Origin: a virus
Lineage: Duplodnaviria; Heunggongvirae; Uroviricota; Caudoviricetes
Virus record (IMG/VR): IMGVR_UViG_2703718810_000001
Span: 1-41,152 of that record
Length of the DNA stretch: 41,152 bases
Reading direction: 5' to 3' (one strand)
The position numbers and the translations under genes are program-made. Positions 5,773 through 38,279 of this stretch are shown here, one piece after another. Below the pieces are notes generated by a model. The model did not search any database, was not told the DNA's origin, and saw nothing but the letters and a program-made list of their open reading frames with translations. Position 1 is the first letter of the stretch. Each line of letters begins with the position of its first letter.

Positions 5773-6377
5773 TAAGCAGCAGCTCCTTCTAATTCGTCTC
5801 GTCTGATGTTGTAAACGTCCTGCGCTTTGTGCTGCTCCGGTGTGCCTTCGAGCATCTTCCACGCTTTGGCGAACGCCTGTTTAAGCTCTTCTACGGTGTT
5901 TTTCTGCATTGCTGCGTCAGTGAATGCTTTTAGAACCTGTTCAGGTGTAGGTGATGGTTTTGATTGCTTTGCTGCTGCGTTCTGCTGATGTTTATGCTCG
6001 TCGGTATCTGCATCTTTCGCATCATCAATGCCGAATAAACCATTGAGGCAATACTTGCGTGCATAAGAGCTTGTAGCTCCCGTAACTTGTGCAGAATCCA
6101 TTCCTTTCTTGCTTTCTTCCTCTCGTGCAAGAGCGGTTGCCGTATGACTGTTTTCGCCATCGGTAATAGTTGCCGTGGCTTTCACGTAATACCGATCACC
6201 AATCAACACAACTTCATCGCTGATTGATAAAAACAGGCCATTCAGTAGCGGCTTAACGCCTTCAAGAATGTCTTCGCAGCTTCTGTATTTATATTTACCG
6301 AATGAGTTGTACTGATTCTTTGGCGCGTTCAGATTCTCCTGAATAGCTGCCAGTCTTGCGTAAAATTCTTTGCTCAT
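5772..6377 (-). CDS. erf: ERF-family single-strand annealing protein
   Basis: Translation from MSKEFYARL matches P22 Erf as recalled; ATG at 6377, ORF-track start at 6407 is TTG. Confidence 0.75.
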   Translation of the reverse strand: MSKEFYARLAAIQENLNAPKNQYNSFGKYKYRSCEDILEGVKPLLNGLFLSISDEVVLIGDRYYVKATATITDGENSHTATALAREEESKKGMDSAQVTGATSSYARKYCLNGLFGIDDAKDADTDEHKHQQNAAAKQSKPSPTPEQVLKAFTDAAMQKNTVEELKQAFAKAWKMLEGTPEQHKAQDVYNIRRDELEGAAA

Positions 6378-6478
6378 ATGTTTGTTCTCAGAATGGACAT
6401 TCCCCAAGGAAATAACGCTGATTTAATACTTCGACTCGGGACAAATTAAGGCATACCCGCATTCCTTCGCGGTCGCCA

Positions 6479-30128: not shown

Positions 30129-31544
30129 ATGGCTACGTGGCAACAGGGTATTAATTCTGGTGGTTTTCTGGCTGGCATCGGTACGCAAAATGAGAATGCG
30201 CCAAAGGCAAGCGACATTAACGCAACGCTTGGTATGATCCGCGAAAACAATGAACTGGCTCGCTCAGGTGCAAATAACGTTGGCCTGACCGCGTTACGTG
30301 GTCTGGCTGGAGTTGCTGATATTTACAATCAGGAACAGCAACAGAAAGCTATTAGTGCGTTCAATAAGGTTCACGCTGATGCATGGGCTTCTGGTGATCC
30401 ATCGGGACTATTTAAGTTTTCCCAGGAAAATCCAGCGTTTGTTGCACAGGCACAACAGGCGTTTTCCGGTCTTAATGATCAGCAACGCAACGATATGGGC
30501 GATTTAGCCATGAGGGCTAACGTCGCTCTTTCTCAGGGACCGGAAGCCTACAGTAAATTCATTACTGACAACAAGGACAGGTTAAATCGCGTTGGTGCTA
30601 ATGCTGACTGGATGATTCAGACAGGTATCCAGAATCCAGAGCAGCTATCACACATGCTGACTACTATGTCTCTCGGTGCGCTTGGACCAGAAAAGGCGTT
30701 TGCTGTTCAGGACAAGATGGCTGGTCGTGAGATTGACCGAGGCAGGCTGGCAGAGACAATCCGCAGCAATCAGGCTGGAGAAGCACTTCAGGCGAGAGGG
30801 CAAAACCTTTCCTATCAGTCAGCAATGACTGGGCACAATATCGCAGCACAACGCTTGGCTCTGGATCAGCAAGAGTTCGGGTTTAAGATGCAGCAAGCGC
30901 AGGAAAAGGCTCAGCAGTTGATTAGCGAAGCACCTAAGCTGTCAGTAAACATGGAAAAAGGCATCGAGACGGCTGTAAACAATGCCACAGCATCATCAAA
31001 CTCAGCCAATTCCATGAGTGCGCTTGCTCAACAGTTCAGAGCAGAAAAACCAACGACCGGCTTGTTCGGTAACGCACAGAACATGTTCGCAAAACTTACC
31101 GGAAGCGATACGACATTGCGTGATTTGCGCATTCGCCAAAATGCCCTTGTTAACAGTCAGGTTCTTAAATTCCTACCTCCCGGACCAGCAACGGATAAAG
31201 ACGTTGAGATCGTTCGACAGGGTGCGCCAACTGACATGGATAACCCTGAGACGGTCGCAAGATGGCTTGATGCAATGGCAAACCTTGAGCGACGAAACGC
31301 GCAGTTTAATGAGTTTAAAGCTGAGTGGATGAGCGCGAATGGCAACCCTGGACAATCGCGTAATGGCGGTCAGATATTGGGGTTGGATGTTAAAAAAGGT
31401 GAATCATTGGGGAGTGCCGTTAAGCGGTATATGTCAATGAATACTGACGCAGCGCCAGCACAAGATTCGACACCTTCAGGAGAACCACGGAATCAGTTTG
31501 GATCATATACCTCAAAATCAGGCATTCAATTTACGGTGGAATGA
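30129..31544 (+). CDS. ejection protein (P22 gp20-like, 471 aa)
   Basis: Same length and order as P22 gp20. Confidence 0.75.
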
Positions 31545-33382
31545 TGAAAGTAACTGCAAACGGTAAGACATTTACCTTTCCTGATGGTACGAGCACCGAA
31601 GATATTGGCACCGCCATTGATGAGTATTTTGCTGGTCAGGCTGTTCAGCAACAAACAGTTAATCAGGCCAATAATGCACCAACACGGGAAGAACCATCAT
31701 TGATGCAACAAGCTGGCGATTGGCTCACTGGTGGTCAAAGTGCAGGGCAAATTGCGGAACAGGCTGGTCGTGGTCTGGTAAACATACCATTTGACGTATT
31801 GCAGGGCGGCGCAAGTCTGATTAATGCAATCAGTCAGGGGCTTGGTGGACCCAAGGTTTTGGATGATGTTTATCGTCCAGTAGACAGACCGACAGACCCC
31901 TACGCGCAAGCCGGTGAAACAATTGGTGGGTATTTAGTTCCAGGAGTTGGAACGGCAGGAAGCATGGCTATTGGATCACTGGCAGAGGCCGCAAATCAGA
32001 AAGGCGATTTCGCACAAAATGCAGCTAAAAATGCCGGAGTTAACCTTGCCGCTCAGGGTGTTCTTTCCGCAGCAGCAAAGGGAATAGGGCGTGGAATAAC
32101 GGCTATAAAAGGTGATATTGCGCCAGAAGTGGCGAAGAAAATTGCCACATCAGAATCGATGGGCGTGACACCAATGACATCTGATGTTATCCCGCCGAAA
32201 AATGCTTTCACTCGCGGCCTTACTCAGGATGCCGAGGGGGCTTTGCTCGGGACAGGCTCAAAGCGAGCGGAGCAATATGCAACGCGTAGTAAGTTGGTAA
32301 GTAATTATTTTGACCGTTTTGGTGAGTACAACCCGGATGATGTGGTGAAATCTCTGACCACCACGTTAAGGGGACGGAAGGATGCCGCTGGCGCTGTTAT
32401 CAATGACGTCACCAATAAAATGGGGAATGCCGCAGTTGATACCACAAATACTATGAATGCTCTGAATACAGCGATCGCAAGACAGGAACGGCTTGGGACG
32501 TCTGCCAATCAAAGCCTGCTTACATCCTTGCGTAACCTACGTGAAGAATTAGCAAACCCTGCAACTGATTTGGATGTTACGTTTGATCTCTTGCGTCAGC
32601 ACAGAACAGCATTTAGATCTAATGTTCAGGGAGATGCTATGGTCTTCCCCAACCAGGCAAAAGCAGCTACCAATATGGTAGAGAATGCAATGTCAAAAGA
32701 CCTTCGTAACGCAGTTGCTAAAAACCTCGGTGCATCAGACGCAGCAAAATACCTTAAAGCAAATTCCGATTATGCAAACGTTTATAATAAGGTGCTTAAT
32801 AAAAACATTGCCAACAAGCTCAACAAGGCAAGCAGTGAAGCCAGTCCTGAACTTATAAATACCGTTGTATTAAGCAGAAAACCATCTGACGTGAAACGAA
32901 TCTGGAGCGCATTGGATGATAAAGGGAAAGATGCTATGCGTGCAGCTTACGTCAGCAAAATAGCGGAAAAGGCCGGTGACTCTCCAGCCAAGTTCATCAC
33001 TGAAGTTAATAAGCTTAAATCTCAGTCAGGCGGTGAAATTTACAACACTATTTTTTCTGGAAAGCACATGAAAGAGCTCGATGCTCTTCATGAAGTTCTA
33101 CAGCAAACAGCAAGGTCAGACACCGCAAATGTAGTAACTCAGACGGGGCAATCACAAGCCAACAGGATAAGGACGATTGGCGCAACTGCGACTCTTGGAG
33201 TATCAATGGGGATTGAGGCTGGTTTTGGTGCAATGATGCGTTTGTATGAGTCCAAAGCAGCAAGGAATGCGCTCTTACGTCTGGCAAACACTAAAGCTGG
33301 AACGCCAGCTTATGAAAGAGCGCTAAATCAGGCTGCTACTGCCGTGCGCCCGCTCTTAGCTAACGAAGCGACCCGGCAGTAG
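31541..33382 (+). CDS. ejection protein (P22 gp16-like)
   Basis: 613 aa; last gene of the rightward virion operon. Confidence 0.75.
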
Positions 33383-33404: not shown

Positions 33405-33971
33405 TTATTTTATAGTTTTTATGAATTCTTTATTAAATCCCTTAGCTTCTCCGGGGTATCTTCCAAAGACAATTTTTATAAAAACAGAAAAAATAAAGAT
33501 AGCAACGCTTAACAACAGTTGCAGTATCATTGGAACCCAAAGAACTACAGGCTCTATATTCATGAAACCAAATATTCTTCCGGCGATCATGGCGAAGTAC
33601 CACACTGTTATCAGCAAACTTAGTGGCATATGAATTACTGATATTACCAATCCAAGAGCATCAGTAATTCTATTTTCAAATTTTTCAGGGGAAAACTTTT
33701 CTTTAAGGTAATTCAGTGCGCAGGCCTCATTCTCTGGATTTTCAGCATTTTTCCCTATAGCAATAGAAATCTCAGATATCCTTGATTCAATTCTTTTTCG
33801 TTTAATAAAACTAGAAAAAAAGAACCACGCAATCTGCAACCCTATCCCCATAAATAGAGTTGCGGCAACTAGCACAGCGTAACTCATAGAATCAGACACA
33901 CCAACCTCTTTAGTTTTTCTAGTTACTTTGTCACGATAGGATATGCGAATTGATAAAACTAAATTGCGCAC
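33405..33971 (-). CDS. 3-TM inner-membrane protein, candidate superinfection-exclusion protein (SieA-position)
   Basis: Three predicted TM helices; AT-rich; occupies the position of sieA in P22 (between gene 16 and mnt). Start uncertain. Confidence 0.55.
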
Positions 33972-34116
33972 ATGATAACTCAGTAATAATTGTTAATGAA
34001 AACATGATCACCTATATTGCACAAGGCGAAACAGGAAGCATAATCTGGTTTCATGAGTGTGATCACGTTTGGGTAAATCAAAGTCAAGAGGAAATACTTG
34101 AAATTATCAAAAATAA

Positions 34117-34698
34117 CTATCTAAACGTTGCACACGACTCATCTATCCATTTTTCATAAAATTGTATACCGAGATAGGCAAGAACAGATGGATGTATATC
34201 AACAAGCTTTTCGCCAAGATGTTCTGTTGGAGGTGGATAATCTTTGCCTTGGTTTCTTACGGTTATAGGCATAGTTGTTGCTGGATGAAACTCAACTATC
34301 ATAGGGTCGCCTTCGTATTTTGCTATTTTCCCTGTTGAATCAATGATTAACTCTTTAATATAATGGCTTCTTGCTCCCGGAAATGCCCCAAGAGTAGTAT
34401 AAGGAGGTTCAAGTTTTGAGATTTCCATAGTGGAATGATGATCAGCATTTCTTGCTTGGTGAAGGTAAGCAAGTGTTTTGTCTGTTTTTCTAAGCATGAA
34501 CTTTTGGTTGAAGTGGCTGCTAAATTTTCCACTAACCGGCTTTGTTGCACAGAGCAACTTACTGAAAGACTTTTCTATATGCCCAAGACATTCTCGCCAG
34601 TGCATTTCAAAATCATCATGGTTTGTAGATGATTTCATCTGCTCTAGGCACTTTTTAGCTGCGATGATTTCTTTTTTTGCTGGGTTGTAATCGATCAT
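34117..34698 (-). CDS. hypothetical protein (193 aa) translationally coupled to mnt
   Basis: ATG overlaps the mnt stop (ATGA); AT-rich; no motif recognised. Confidence 0.6.
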   Translation of the reverse strand: MIDYNPAKKEIIAAKKCLEQMKSSTNHDDFEMHWRECLGHIEKSFSKLLCATKPVSGKFSSHFNQKFMLRKTDKTLAYLHQARNADHHSTMEISKLEPPYTTLGAFPGARSHYIKELIIDSTGKIAKYEGDPMIVEFHPATTMPITVRNQGKDYPPPTEHLGEKLVDIHPSVLAYLGIQFYEKWIDESCATFR

Positions 34699-34949
34699 TT
34701 TGCATCCTTGCCATACATGTTTTTAAGTGTCTCAAATACCACAGACTTGAACTGTTCAGCCTGCATCTCGGCTAATCGTTCAGCTTCATTGCGATAACCT
34801 TTTACAGGAGATGGTCTCGATAGAGCATCTTGGACGATTTGCAACAATTCTGAGTTCATTGATCTACCATTTGACTCTGCTCTGTATTTTAATTTTTCTC
34901 TTACTTCCAAAGGCATGCGGAAGTTAAAGTGCGGATCATCTCTAGCCAT
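34695..34949 (-). CDS. mnt: Mnt maintenance repressor (ribbon-helix-helix)
   Basis: Translation matches P22 Mnt as recalled. Confidence 0.85.
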   Translation of the reverse strand: MARDDPHFNFRMPLEVREKLKYRAESNGRSMNSELLQIVQDALSRPSPVKGYRNEAERLAEMQAEQFKSVVFETLKNMYGKDAK

Positions 34950-34971
34950 GCCATCACTCCAAGTTAGTGTA

Positions 34972-35023
34972 TTGACATGATAGAAGCACTCTACTATATT
35001 CTCAATAGGTCCACCGTGGACCT
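34972..35023. promoter_or_regulatory. immI control region: Pant with Oarc and Omnt operators
   Basis: TTGACA and TATATT with 17-bp spacer; ATGATAGAAGCACTCTACTAT between them; near-palindrome AGGTCCACCGTGGACCT at 35007-35023. Confidence 0.65.
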
Positions 35024-35039: not shown

Positions 35040-35201
35040 ATGAAAGGAATGAGCAAAATGCCGCAGTTCAATTTGCGGTGGCCTAAAGAAGTATTGGATT
35101 TGGTACGCAAGGTGGCGGAAGAGAATGGTCGGTCTGTTAACTCTGAGATTTATCAGAGAGTAATGGACAGCTTTAAGAAGGAAGGGCGTATTGGCGCGTA
35201 A
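35040..35201 (+). CDS. arc: Arc repressor (ribbon-helix-helix)
   Basis: From [15 protein letters not shown]...; GAGGTG RBS; 53 aa. Confidence 0.85.
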
Positions 35202-35275
35202 AGTTGAAGCCCCAACTGCGGGAACAGTCAGGGCTTCTGTTGTCAGTAAATTCGTGGAGAAAAACCAACATGAAT
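35202..35275 (-). ncRNA. sar: possible sar-like antisense RNA region opposite the ant ribosome-binding site
   Basis: P22 has a small antisense RNA at the arc-ant junction; boundaries here are guessed, no promoter or terminator assigned. Confidence 0.25.
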
Positions 35276-36172
35276 AGTATAGCAATTTTAGAAGCAGTGA
35301 ACACCTCTTACGTACCTTTCAATGGTCAGCAGATTATCACCGCCATGACTGCCGGAGTTGCATATGTTGCGATGAAGCCAATCGTTGAAAACCTTGGAAT
35401 GAGCTGGTCAACGCAGCAAACAAAACTCATGAAGCAGATTAGCAAATTCAACTGTGTTCATATGAACATGGTTGCCGCTGATGGTAAGCTTCGTAAGCTA
35501 CTCTGCCTTCCTTTGAAGAAGTTAAATGGATGGCTGTTCAGCATCAACCCTGAGAAAGTTCGTGCTGACATCCGCGATAAACTGATTCAGTACCAGGAAG
35601 AATGCTTTACTGTGCTGCATGACTACTGGACGAAGGGAAAGGCAGAAAATGCACGTAAGAAAACATCTGTTGATGACAGGACTCCGCTTCGTGATGCTGT
35701 AAATATGCTAGTCAGCAAAAAGCATCTAATGTACCCAGAAGCTTATGCAATGATTCATCAGCGTTTCAACGTGGAAAGTATTGAAGAGCTTGATTCATCT
35801 CAGATACCGCAAGCAGTAGAGTACATCCACAGGGTAGTGCTTGAAGGCGAGTTCATCGGCAAACAAGAGAAGAAAACCAACGAGCTTTCTGCAAAAGAAG
35901 CAAACAGCCTTGTATGGTTATGGGATTATGCCAACCGCTCACAGGCATTATTCCGCGAACTGTATCCGGCGCTAAAACAAATTCAATCGAACTATTCCGG
36001 CAGATGCTACGACTACGGTCATGAGTTCTCGTATGTTATCGGAATGGCGAGAGACGTTTTAATAAACCACACACGAGATGTTGATATTAATGAGCCAGAC
36101 GGACCAACGAATCTCTCCGCATGGATGAGACTTAAGAATAAAGAATTGCCTCCTTCAGTACATAACTACTGA
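35270..36172 (+). CDS. ant: antirepressor Ant
   Basis: From [21 protein letters not shown]..., 300 aa; GGAG RBS; ORF-track start at 35204 is TTG. Confidence 0.8.
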
Positions 36173-36350: not shown

Positions 36351-38279
36351 ATGACAGACATTACAGCCAATGTTGTGGTAAGCATGCCTTCGCAACTCTT
36401 CACTATGGCGCGTTCTTTTAAAGCCGTAGCCAATGGAAAAATTTATATCGGTAAAATTGACACTGACCCTGTAAATCCTGAAAACCAGATTCAGGTTTAT
36501 GTGGAGAACGAAGACGGCTCTCACGTTCCTGTTTCGCAACCAATCATCATTAATGCTGCTGGATATCCGGTATATAACGGACAGATTGCCAAATTCGTAA
36601 CTGTGCAAGGCCATTCAATGGCTGTATACGATGCGTATGGTGCGCAGCAGTTCTATTTTCCTAATGTGCTGAAGTATGACCCTGATCAGCTGGAGCAAAG
36701 ACTTTCAAGTACATCAGGAGCATCATTAATAGGTATAGATAAATATGGTACAATTGAGAATGCAATTAAATATTCAATAAAGTATGTAACACCAGAAATG
36801 TATATCTCACAGTCCTCAGACATAACCGAGGCTATTCAGATGGCAATTGATGATTGTGAGGTTGTATATATGGAACCTACCGACTACCTTATTGAAAGAA
36901 CCATAAATATACCTGATGGCAGGGTTATTTATCTTGGCGGATCAAAGTTAACAGCTTCTACAGGTAGTTCTCCTATATTTAAGTATAATGGGAAAAATAT
37001 CGGATTAACAATTTGGGGCGGCAGCTGCATTGTTACAGGAGCGGCAAGTGCATTCTTAGAGGCTGAAGGTGATAGCGACACACCTAGCAATGAAGACTAT
37101 ATTAAACAGATAAGACTTTACGGTGTTCATGTATCATCTTCAATGATAACATATGCGCTTTTGTTAAAAAAAGCAGTTCGTCAAATATTTATTGATTCCT
37201 GCATGTTTTATACCGTAAATGGGATTGTTTCATCAGGGAAAACAGTAGAGTTGGCTTGCAATAAGAGCATTGTATTTGGGGCGACAACGGCTACTGATAC
37301 TGTTGGAATTGGCATTTATAGTACTGGAACCGGTGGCCCTTATTATAATGAGGGATGGCATTTTACCGATTGCACAATAGATAATTTTGAAAGAACATTT
37401 GATGTCTCTGATATATATGTGTTAACTGTCAATGGTGGATTTATAGGAAATAACTCAAATACTGGATTTGCTATGTATTTTGGAGAGGGAAATACAACTC
37501 ATTGTAGAGAAATTAATGTTAATACAGTCATAGGAGGTAGGGTTAAGTTTAACAACGCCACTATCGAGAGATTGTGTCATGCAAAATTTAGCGGTGAGAT
37601 AACCTACTGCAAGGGTGGGAGTGGGGTGTGTTTTGCCATTGGCAATAATATATCTGCAGTTGATGTTATTGGTATGAAGTTTACAACTAATACAGGACAC
37701 GTTGTAGCAACTGTTGGTAATGGTTCTTCAAATATTCATTTTTCTGATATAAGCACAGACTCTTCACACATCTCTGGAATATTGTTTTCTGGCACCGATG
37801 GTGGTAATTGTTCAATATCAGACTTTTCATACTCAGGAGCAGGGGAGGCTTTATCACTTCCAAGGCCTGTTAAGCTTTCAAACGTACCAGTCATCGGTGT
37901 TGCTACACCTGTTTTTTCAATAAAAAATGATTTTGTATCTTCTAACAAGATAGTAGCAATAGGTTCAAATATAAATCAGTTGCAGATGACAATCGCTAAA
38001 GGTAGTAGAATTTCAATAAATATAAACATTTCTTACCTTGGTGGTGCTGGAAGCACGGCGCAAGTAATAGGAATTACTGCGCCAAGTGGTACTATACTTC
38101 CAAATGGCAGCAATAGTATGCAATTCACTCTTCCTGAGGCTAATGGAAGTGTTACTTTAAATGTAATTGCCTCAGTTTCTACTGATTTCATTAATGGATC
38201 TTTTACCATAGATAACAGGGCTGGGAATACATTAACTGTTATGCCCGGCTCTCATCTTTCAGTTACTCTATCGAATTGA
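36351..38279 (+). CDS. tailspike protein: conserved head-binding domain plus divergent receptor-binding domain
   Basis: First ~115 aa match the P22/HK620 tailspike N-terminus as recalled; remainder is AT-rich, Gly/Ser/Thr/Asn-rich and different. Confidence 0.8.

Follow-up and report, generated by a model that had tools for sequence, protein, structure and literature searches.

The superinfection-exclusion protein SieA and the maintenance repressor Mnt of phage P22 are textbook proteins. SieA proteins possess three transmembrane (TM) helices and a conserved cytoplasmic motif, FnRYPnEAnnFNK (Leavitt/Casjens et al., PMC10461980), and the interval between genes 16 and 9 of P22-like phages is a highly variable slot that carries assorted genes (PMC8022706). 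Here, we analyzed a DNA stretch of 41,152 nucleotides (IMG/VR record IMGVR_UViG_2703718810_000001; hereafter the window), which is a P22-like (Lederbergvirus-type) prophage of Escherichia coli. Three genes of this prophage lie head-to-tail on the minus strand between positions 33405 and 34949: mnt, an open reading frame (ORF) of 193 codons termed ORF193, and a membrane protein gene that proved to be sieA. ORF193 is thus located between two textbook genes and is itself a member of a large unnamed family. We suggest, with a probability of roughly 0.4, that its product is a lysogen-expressed HEPN-like ribonuclease (RNase) that would act behind SieA as a post-entry abortive-infection (Abi) or defence effector.

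HEPN domains are four-helix up-down bundles that carry an Rx4-6H motif at the end of helix 3, in which the residue after the arginine is mostly N, D or H; helix 2 often contains a residue that is acidic (Anantharaman et al. 2013, PMC3710099). Inserts directly after this motif are known, such as the beta-hairpin of Csx1, and the presence of HEPN genes within type I restriction-modification (R-M) operons is a described arrangement (PMC3710099).

Results

The ORF193 family

No match to the 193-amino-acid (aa) product of ORF193 was found in Pfam, NCBIfam or PADLOC (no PADLOC-DB 2.0.0 model at an E value of ≤1), and comparison with the sequences of solved structures, by phmmer and by a family profile search, gave chance matches only. 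The sole PHROG matched was phrog_23516, which is labelled "unknown function." A tblastn search of 50,697 phage genomes returned no match, and the protein lacks homology to any characterised protein of P22 or HK620. While a word-indexed search yielded only 7 relatives, an exhaustive profile search recovered 1,772 cluster representatives (50% identity) at an E value of ≤1e-3, 1,296 of them at ≤1e-10, and ORF193 is therefore a real gene rather than a chance ORF. The relatives are nearly all 185 to 205 aa long and match end to end. Named members of the family are all "hypothetical protein," the longer ones carry no informative fused domains in Pfam scans, and searches of the literature for family protein accessions, or for TIGR02391 together with HEPN, found no paper.

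Residues were counted in an alignment of 139 sequences with 23 to 62% identity to ORF193. Three residues, W34, R83 and H88, were invariant (139/139), while R70, D73, Y78, A82, P157 and H160 were each conserved in at least 95% of sequences and L38, L75 and L76 in at least 90%. A first-pass annotation, made from the letters of the window alone, had recognised no motif in the protein, a statement now superseded by this alignment, which reveals an invariant R-x4-H with N, D or H after the arginine. Residue 84 is N in 74, D in 36 and H in 14 of the sequences (124/139, 89%), and an acidic E/D31 is found in helix 2 of 106/139 family members.

An AlphaFold model of ORF193, predicted from the family alignment with a predicted local distance difference test (pLDDT) score of 96.5 and a predicted template modeling (pTM) score of 0.89, displays a four-helix bundle with helices at residues 5-23, 27-51, 60-88 and 170-192. 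Helix 3 is kinked at D73 (helical by DSSP at 60-72 and 74-88) and is closed by the segment R83-N-A-D-H-H88. Directly past this motif, a beta-rich domain (residues 94-154) is inserted into the bundle, and it is followed by a near-invariant PPxxHLG loop that contains H160.

The predicted four-helix bundle, the Rx4-6H motif, the polar N/D/H residue after the arginine and the position at the end of helix 3 all agree with the definition of HEPN, whereas a significant profile or structural-alphabet match was not obtained. Among known kinds, the protein is closest to the HEPN abortive-infection proteins and toxins (AbiV, AbiD/F, Ymh/PF09509 and HepT/DUF86). Like ORF193, these proteins of ~130 to 270 aa have a four-helix up-down bundle whose helix 3 ends in an invariant R-x4-H, the arginine being followed by N, D or H, and their genes too occur singly in prophages, on plasmids and within R-M operons. 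ORF193 differs from them in having no detectable profile similarity to any, in the ~80-residue beta-rich insert between helices 3 and 4, and in the additional near-invariant residues W34, R70, D73, Y78 and H160. ORF193 would be one step removed from known kinds, namely a solo effector that resembles HEPN/Abi proteins but has an insert of new architecture and lacks a profile link.

Expression of ORF193 with mnt

The first gene of the module encodes a genuine Mnt repressor, with a ribbon-helix-helix (RHH) N-terminal domain, a Mnt C-terminal domain (Pfam matches Arc, 2.8e-27, and Repressor_Mnt, 3.4e-11, both over the cut-off) and a cognate operator beside Pant. Both this protein, which is 79% identical to P22 Mnt, and its control region are closely related to those of P22: the region containing Pant, Pmnt, Oarc and Omnt shares 98% identity with its annotated counterpart in P22, which has been defined by experiment, and Pmnt and Pant were both recovered in a promoter consensus scan. 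The genes arc, ant and sar are all intact, as judged from checked translations and Rfam; since sar, which lies between the other two, is undamaged, the regulatory circuit of immI appears to be functional as a whole. In P22 biology, Pmnt is the lysogenic promoter of the region, in agreement with the BK000583 annotation, and a lysogen should accordingly produce ORF193 along with Mnt.

The ATG of ORF193 (34698-34696) overlaps the mnt TGA (34697-34695) as ATGA, and a Shine-Dalgarno sequence, AAGGA, lies 6 nt 5' of the start. The assignment of this start is fixed by the N-terminal sequence MIDYNPA, which is common to the homologues. The overlap had been reported in the first-pass annotation and is confirmed at the sequence level; the expression with mnt in the lysogen that it had deduced is well supported, as we infer from the P22-like control region and from translational coupling. 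A terminator between ORF193 and sieA was also considered and found no support. No minus-strand terminator or sigma-70 promoter was detected there in a consensus scan, and the RNA fold of the spacer was no better than that of shuffled sequence (z-score, -0.14). From this absence of consensus signals, we infer a read-through transcript spanning mnt, ORF193 and sieA.

The arrangement resembles the mnt-orf59a operon of P22, in which a small or medium gene of undefined function likewise follows mnt on the same transcript. P22 orf59a (59 aa, phrog_3202) is, however, unrelated to ORF193, starts 99 bp after mnt, and is followed by a terminator that is absent here.

RHH-first overlapping operons are also the classical layout of type II toxin-antitoxin (TA) modules, and HEPN domains are frequent TA toxins (PMC3710099). 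ORF193 could then be the toxin of an RHH/toxin addiction pair, with the Mnt-like RHH protein as antitoxin or autoregulator, and would stabilise the prophage rather than, or besides, attacking phage. In keeping with this idea, the 4-bp overlap recurs with three RHH alleles: the 84-aa Mnt of the window; a 78-aa allele in another E. coli prophage (L004; Pfam FitA-like_RHH, 4e-9, and HicB, 2e-5); and, at a third locus (L028), an 83-aa Mnt-like RHH protein that shares only 23% identity with Mnt and whose gene precedes a 62%-identical ORF193 homologue and adjoins a umuC remnant instead of arc and ant. Yet an RHH partner was confined to the E. coli cluster and L028, with 13 other contexts showing no shared neighbour, and all examined homologues at or below 53% identity were standalone, including one on an 8.8-kb plasmid. 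The two-gene operon conserved across a family that characterises type II TA systems was thus not found. Furthermore, P22 Mnt, with its defined operator and function, works without such a partner, and the coupling seen here may reflect recombination within mnt, where a breakpoint falls at 34768. We consider an addiction pair unlikely.

Genomic neighbourhoods of ORF193 relatives

In Rhodoferax, a relative of ORF193 is located inside a type I R-M operon with the order hsdM-Fic/DOC-hsdS-orf148-X-hsdR, where X is the homologue. The 148-aa ORF of this operon (L012:3373-3819, plus strand) has no Pfam match; it lies before the homologue and has a 4-bp overlap with the hsdS stop. The location between hsdS and hsdR, together with Fic/DOC, recalls the PrrC/RloC-type HEPN genes of type I R-M systems. 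In contrast to PrrC and RloC, no ABC-ATPase or other N-terminal regulatory domain is present, and ORF193 itself is prophage-borne and has no R-M partner. Another relative begins 6 bp after a HEPN gene of the Ymh/PF09509 family. Further relatives are found at prophage ends or in lysis cassettes of at least seven unrelated prophages (P22-like, P2-like, sipho-, podo- and Pseudomonas), and others adjoin IS1595 or integrase genes. Two come from mobilisable plasmids of Acinetobacter that are small, next to a Fic gene and with a BrnT/BrnA pair on either side. A motif-restricted sub-alignment search for related loci yielded only 4 genome loci. An all-against-all blastp comparison of the relatives' neighbours revealed no conserved partner gene, and the family therefore behaves as a single-gene module.

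An exchanged cassette in the gene 16-gene 9 interval

DNA homology to P22 ends at 33917 and resumes at 34768, with ~850 bp exchanged between these blastn breakpoints. The cassette takes the place of P22's PsieA, its plus-strand ORF (ORF125), the terminator of mnt, orf59a and the final part of mnt at its 3' end; the last 24 mnt codons travel with ORF193, since homology to P22 DNA is seen only from 34768. Other E. coli prophages share 33897-34735 or 33897-35000 with the window, while their flanking sieA or mnt alleles differ. In complete E. coli genomes, the cassette (33897 to 34735 or beyond) was detected at an identity of at least 99% in 21 of 5,426, always joined by the same 4-bp overlap to an Arc-family gene, which in L004 is a different mnt allele. 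In other E. coli prophages, this spacer accompanies ORF193 but is followed by different genes, which encode other envelope proteins.

This scarcity, and the reputation of the gene 16-gene 9 slot as a collector of assorted genes (PMC8022706), would fit a moron that is neutral or serves host physiology and takes no part in conflicts between phages or between phage and host. Such a passenger is hard to reconcile with a catalytic-looking constellation strictly kept across 1,772 representatives, with the recurrent R-M, TA and prophage-end contexts, or with the placement of the gene, which has a repressor on one side and an exclusion gene on the other and is subject to a lysogenic promoter, and we regard it as the least probable of the explanations considered.

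Two of the E. coli prophages carry other genes instead of sieA. In one, a 122-aa protein with a signal- or lipoprotein-like N terminus is encoded (L003:3614-3982, minus strand; phrog_2651) and is putatively secreted; in the other, the product is a 130-aa single-pass membrane protein (L004:3684-4076, minus strand; phrog_10450). It is possible that both are alternative exclusion proteins.

A small ORF of 69 aa with a TTG start runs convergently to ORF193 and overlaps its end. It is preceded by AGGA 7 nt upstream of the TTG and would be read by the late-operon transcript. In another prophage, a 65-aa ORF (L016:1683-1880, minus strand) is placed in the same way, convergent and overlapping, next to an ORF193 homologue of 53% identity, and the two small products are 37% identical over 59 aa (pairwise E value, ~5e-6). 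No match to the 69-aa ORF was found in Pfam, PHROGs or phage genomes. It may be a real late-strand gene and a functional partner of ORF193. The P22 ORF that it replaces is unrelated: this 125-aa ORF (BK000583, 2117-2494, plus strand; phrog_1365), located between sieA and orf59a and unannotated there, contains HECAH, and homology between the two, suggested by a HEC-H in both, was rejected, as the likeness is limited to a hexapeptide (E value, 0.19). The hairpin that is annotated as the terminator of mnt also marks the end of the P22 ORF and may hence work in both directions.

The membrane protein is SieA

The first-pass annotation had proposed the membrane protein as a plausible SieA analogue. 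It is instead a type-A SieA orthologue itself, and a novel analogue is rejected. Its product of 164 aa is 92% identical to P22 SieA (151/164; E value, 5e-114) and matches the "SieA-like" phrog_7745 at 1.2e-108, and the DNA is ~85 to 92% identical to P22 sieA. A stretch of 13 residues matches the published cytoplasmic motif, and the hydrophobic segments seen in hydropathy analysis (residues 5-32 and 78-150) fit the three published TM helices. Similarity, TM helices, motif, length and location between homologues of gene 16 and gene 9 are thus all those of P22 SieA. The listed ORF of 188 aa, starting at a GTG at 33971, is probably longer than the gene; the part homologous to P22 sieA begins 18 nt upstream of the GTG at 33899, from which 164 aa would be translated. 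RefSeq labels the same E. coli gene in some cases as a 188-aa "hypothetical protein" and in others as "superinfection exclusion protein A."

What differs from P22 is the host, E. coli rather than Salmonella, and the upstream region, as PsieA and everything more than 18 nt upstream of the gene are replaced. The PsieA region of P22 (L001, 2117-2159) is not conserved at 33900-33990 (minus strand) of the window. Expression of sieA here probably occurs by read-through from Pmnt or from an unrecognised promoter. SieA had no PADLOC-DB 2.0.0 match at an E value of ≤1. In E. coli strain 81 (L031, 831-1949), an IS3-like element, ISSen4, interrupts sieA, while mnt and ORF193 are intact. By sequence, the SieA half of the module is already known. 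Of the proposal that the module is an undescribed defence or exclusion candidate, the part concerning ORF193 stands, made plausible by its motif and the neighbourhoods of its relatives, while the part concerning the membrane protein does not.

Layout of the locus

The features of the region are collected in Table 1. Only 22 bp separate the end of the sieA ORF from the stop of the convergent gene for a gp16-type ejection protein. The convergence described in the first-pass annotation is therefore correct, although the gp16-type gene is the last of its virion block only and not the last virion gene, as the tailspike gene follows the immI region. The marked AT-richness that it had ascribed to the module was likewise borne out: the GC contents of sieA, the spacer, ORF193 and mnt are 0.349, 0.327, 0.387 and 0.404, respectively, compared with 0.47 to 0.49 for the two upstream virion genes and 0.47 for the whole window. 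The gap between ant and the tailspike gene is 178 bp and lacks an HNH endonuclease gene; in the related prophage of E. coli Combat2C1 (L002), an HNH endonuclease gene (5984-6442, minus strand) lies between ant and the tailspike gene.

Table 1. Features of the mnt-ORF193-sieA region, in window coordinates
Feature	Position	Strand	Remarks
gp16-type ejection-protein gene	31541-33382	+	convergent with sieA
sieA	33405-33899	-	type-A superinfection-exclusion inner-membrane protein, probably 164 aa from GTG at 33899
Swapped cassette versus P22	33897-34768		blastn breakpoints and E. coli prophage comparison
Spacer, ORF193-sieA, 217 nt	33900-34116	-	part of ORF193 cassette
Small convergent ORF, 69 aa, TTG start	33950-34159	+	overlaps last 43 nt of ORF193
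ORF193	34117-34698	-	predicted soluble 193-aa protein, unnamed family
mnt, maintenance repressor, 84 aa	34695-34949	-	Arc-type ribbon-helix-helix plus Mnt C-terminal domain
Divergent control region	34972-35023		coordinates transferred from BK000583
Pant	34972-35000	+	transferred from P22 BK000583
Pmnt	35005-34977	-	transferred from P22 BK000583
Oarc	34977-34997		transferred from P22 BK000583
Omnt	35001-35023		transferred from P22 BK000583
Rightward immI arm	35040-36172	+	context of module
arc	35040-35201	+	Pfam Arc
sar antisense RNA	35202-35269	-	Rfam RF00262, 91 bits, E value 1.7e-19
ant	35270-36172	+	Pfam P22_AR_N, P22_AR_C
Tailspike gene	36351-38279		beyond immI region

Discussion

We propose that the locus represents the leftward arm of an immI region of the P22 type, an arm expressed by the prophage, in which two anti-superinfection functions would be stacked. 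Transcription would start at Pmnt and proceed through mnt, with ORF193 translated through the ATGA coupling, and the transcript would most likely continue over the terminator-less spacer into sieA. SieA, whose function is known, would block DNA delivery by P22-like phages at the inner membrane. ORF193 would be a latent HEPN-like RNase with catalysis by the R83/H88 site, acting on its own as an effector of abortive infection or defence when phages pass SieA, and its beta domain would be the likely trigger- or substrate-recognition element. Gene order, the ATGA coupling, the conservation of the promoters, the size of the family, its conserved residues, the predicted fold and the neighbourhoods were observed; the RNase chemistry, the latency, the triggering, the anti-phage phenotype and the read-through into sieA are all deduced here.

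Several results weigh against this proposal. A Pfam scan of 139 family members gave only scattered noise, with 0 matches to HEPN models, and the family profile revealed no HEPN link among the sequences of solved structures. An hhalign comparison with a 120-sequence alignment of Ymh, the sole HEPN family compared, gave a probability of 0.14. In a Foldseek search of the PDB with the ORF193 model, the best E value was 1, with 5yep_B at rank 19, and the family has no model in PADLOC (2023). Membership in HEPN is therefore argued from motif, topology and context and carries no significance statistic. Guilt by association is weak, since prophage ends also hold non-defence morons, and read-through into sieA is deduced only from absent consensus signals. 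That ORF193 works like a HEPN RNase is accordingly our leading hypothesis and not a classification.

The same search results would also fit a conflict-related accessory protein of a non-HEPN kind, either another enzyme, using R70, D73, Y78, R83, H88 and H160, or a binding protein. Its role could be defensive, regulatory or counter-defensive, the last meaning that it shields the prophage, or the progeny formed on induction, from systems of the host. Neighbourhoods with mobile elements and R-M genes leave the chemistry unspecified, known HEPN families contain nothing comparable to the beta domain and PPxxHLG loop, and a structural match over the full length was not found. On the other hand, an invariant R-x4-H, N/D/H in 89% of members, a site where helix 3 ends, and HEPN-typical neighbourhoods form a coincidence that is hard to dismiss. 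We hold a non-HEPN protein to be only somewhat less likely and retain the HEPN-like RNase as the preferred explanation. A wider claim, that ORF193 founds an unnamed branch of ~195-aa HEPN-like RNases, with a beta-domain insert behind the catalytic motif and no Pfam model, that act as a stand-alone anti-phage system in proteobacterial prophages, small plasmids and R-M islands and that became wired to Mnt in P22-like coliphages, can be put forward only tentatively. In that case, a single lysogenic promoter would drive antirepressor control, a defence enzyme inside the cell and the block to entry by SieA.

The significance of the finding is moderate, as prophage moron sites yield many such candidates and the mechanism is built on motif and context. 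Nevertheless, the ORF193 family is large and has been missed by Pfam, NCBIfam, PHROG annotation and PADLOC, and a near-perfect AlphaFold model together with an invariant, catalytic-looking site makes it a concrete single-gene candidate. Should ORF193 not be a defence RNase, the family would still need a function. If it is one, it would add a family to the HEPN/Abi repertoire, and the gene 16-gene 9 slot would stack an entry block and a post-entry effector under the promoter of the maintenance repressor.

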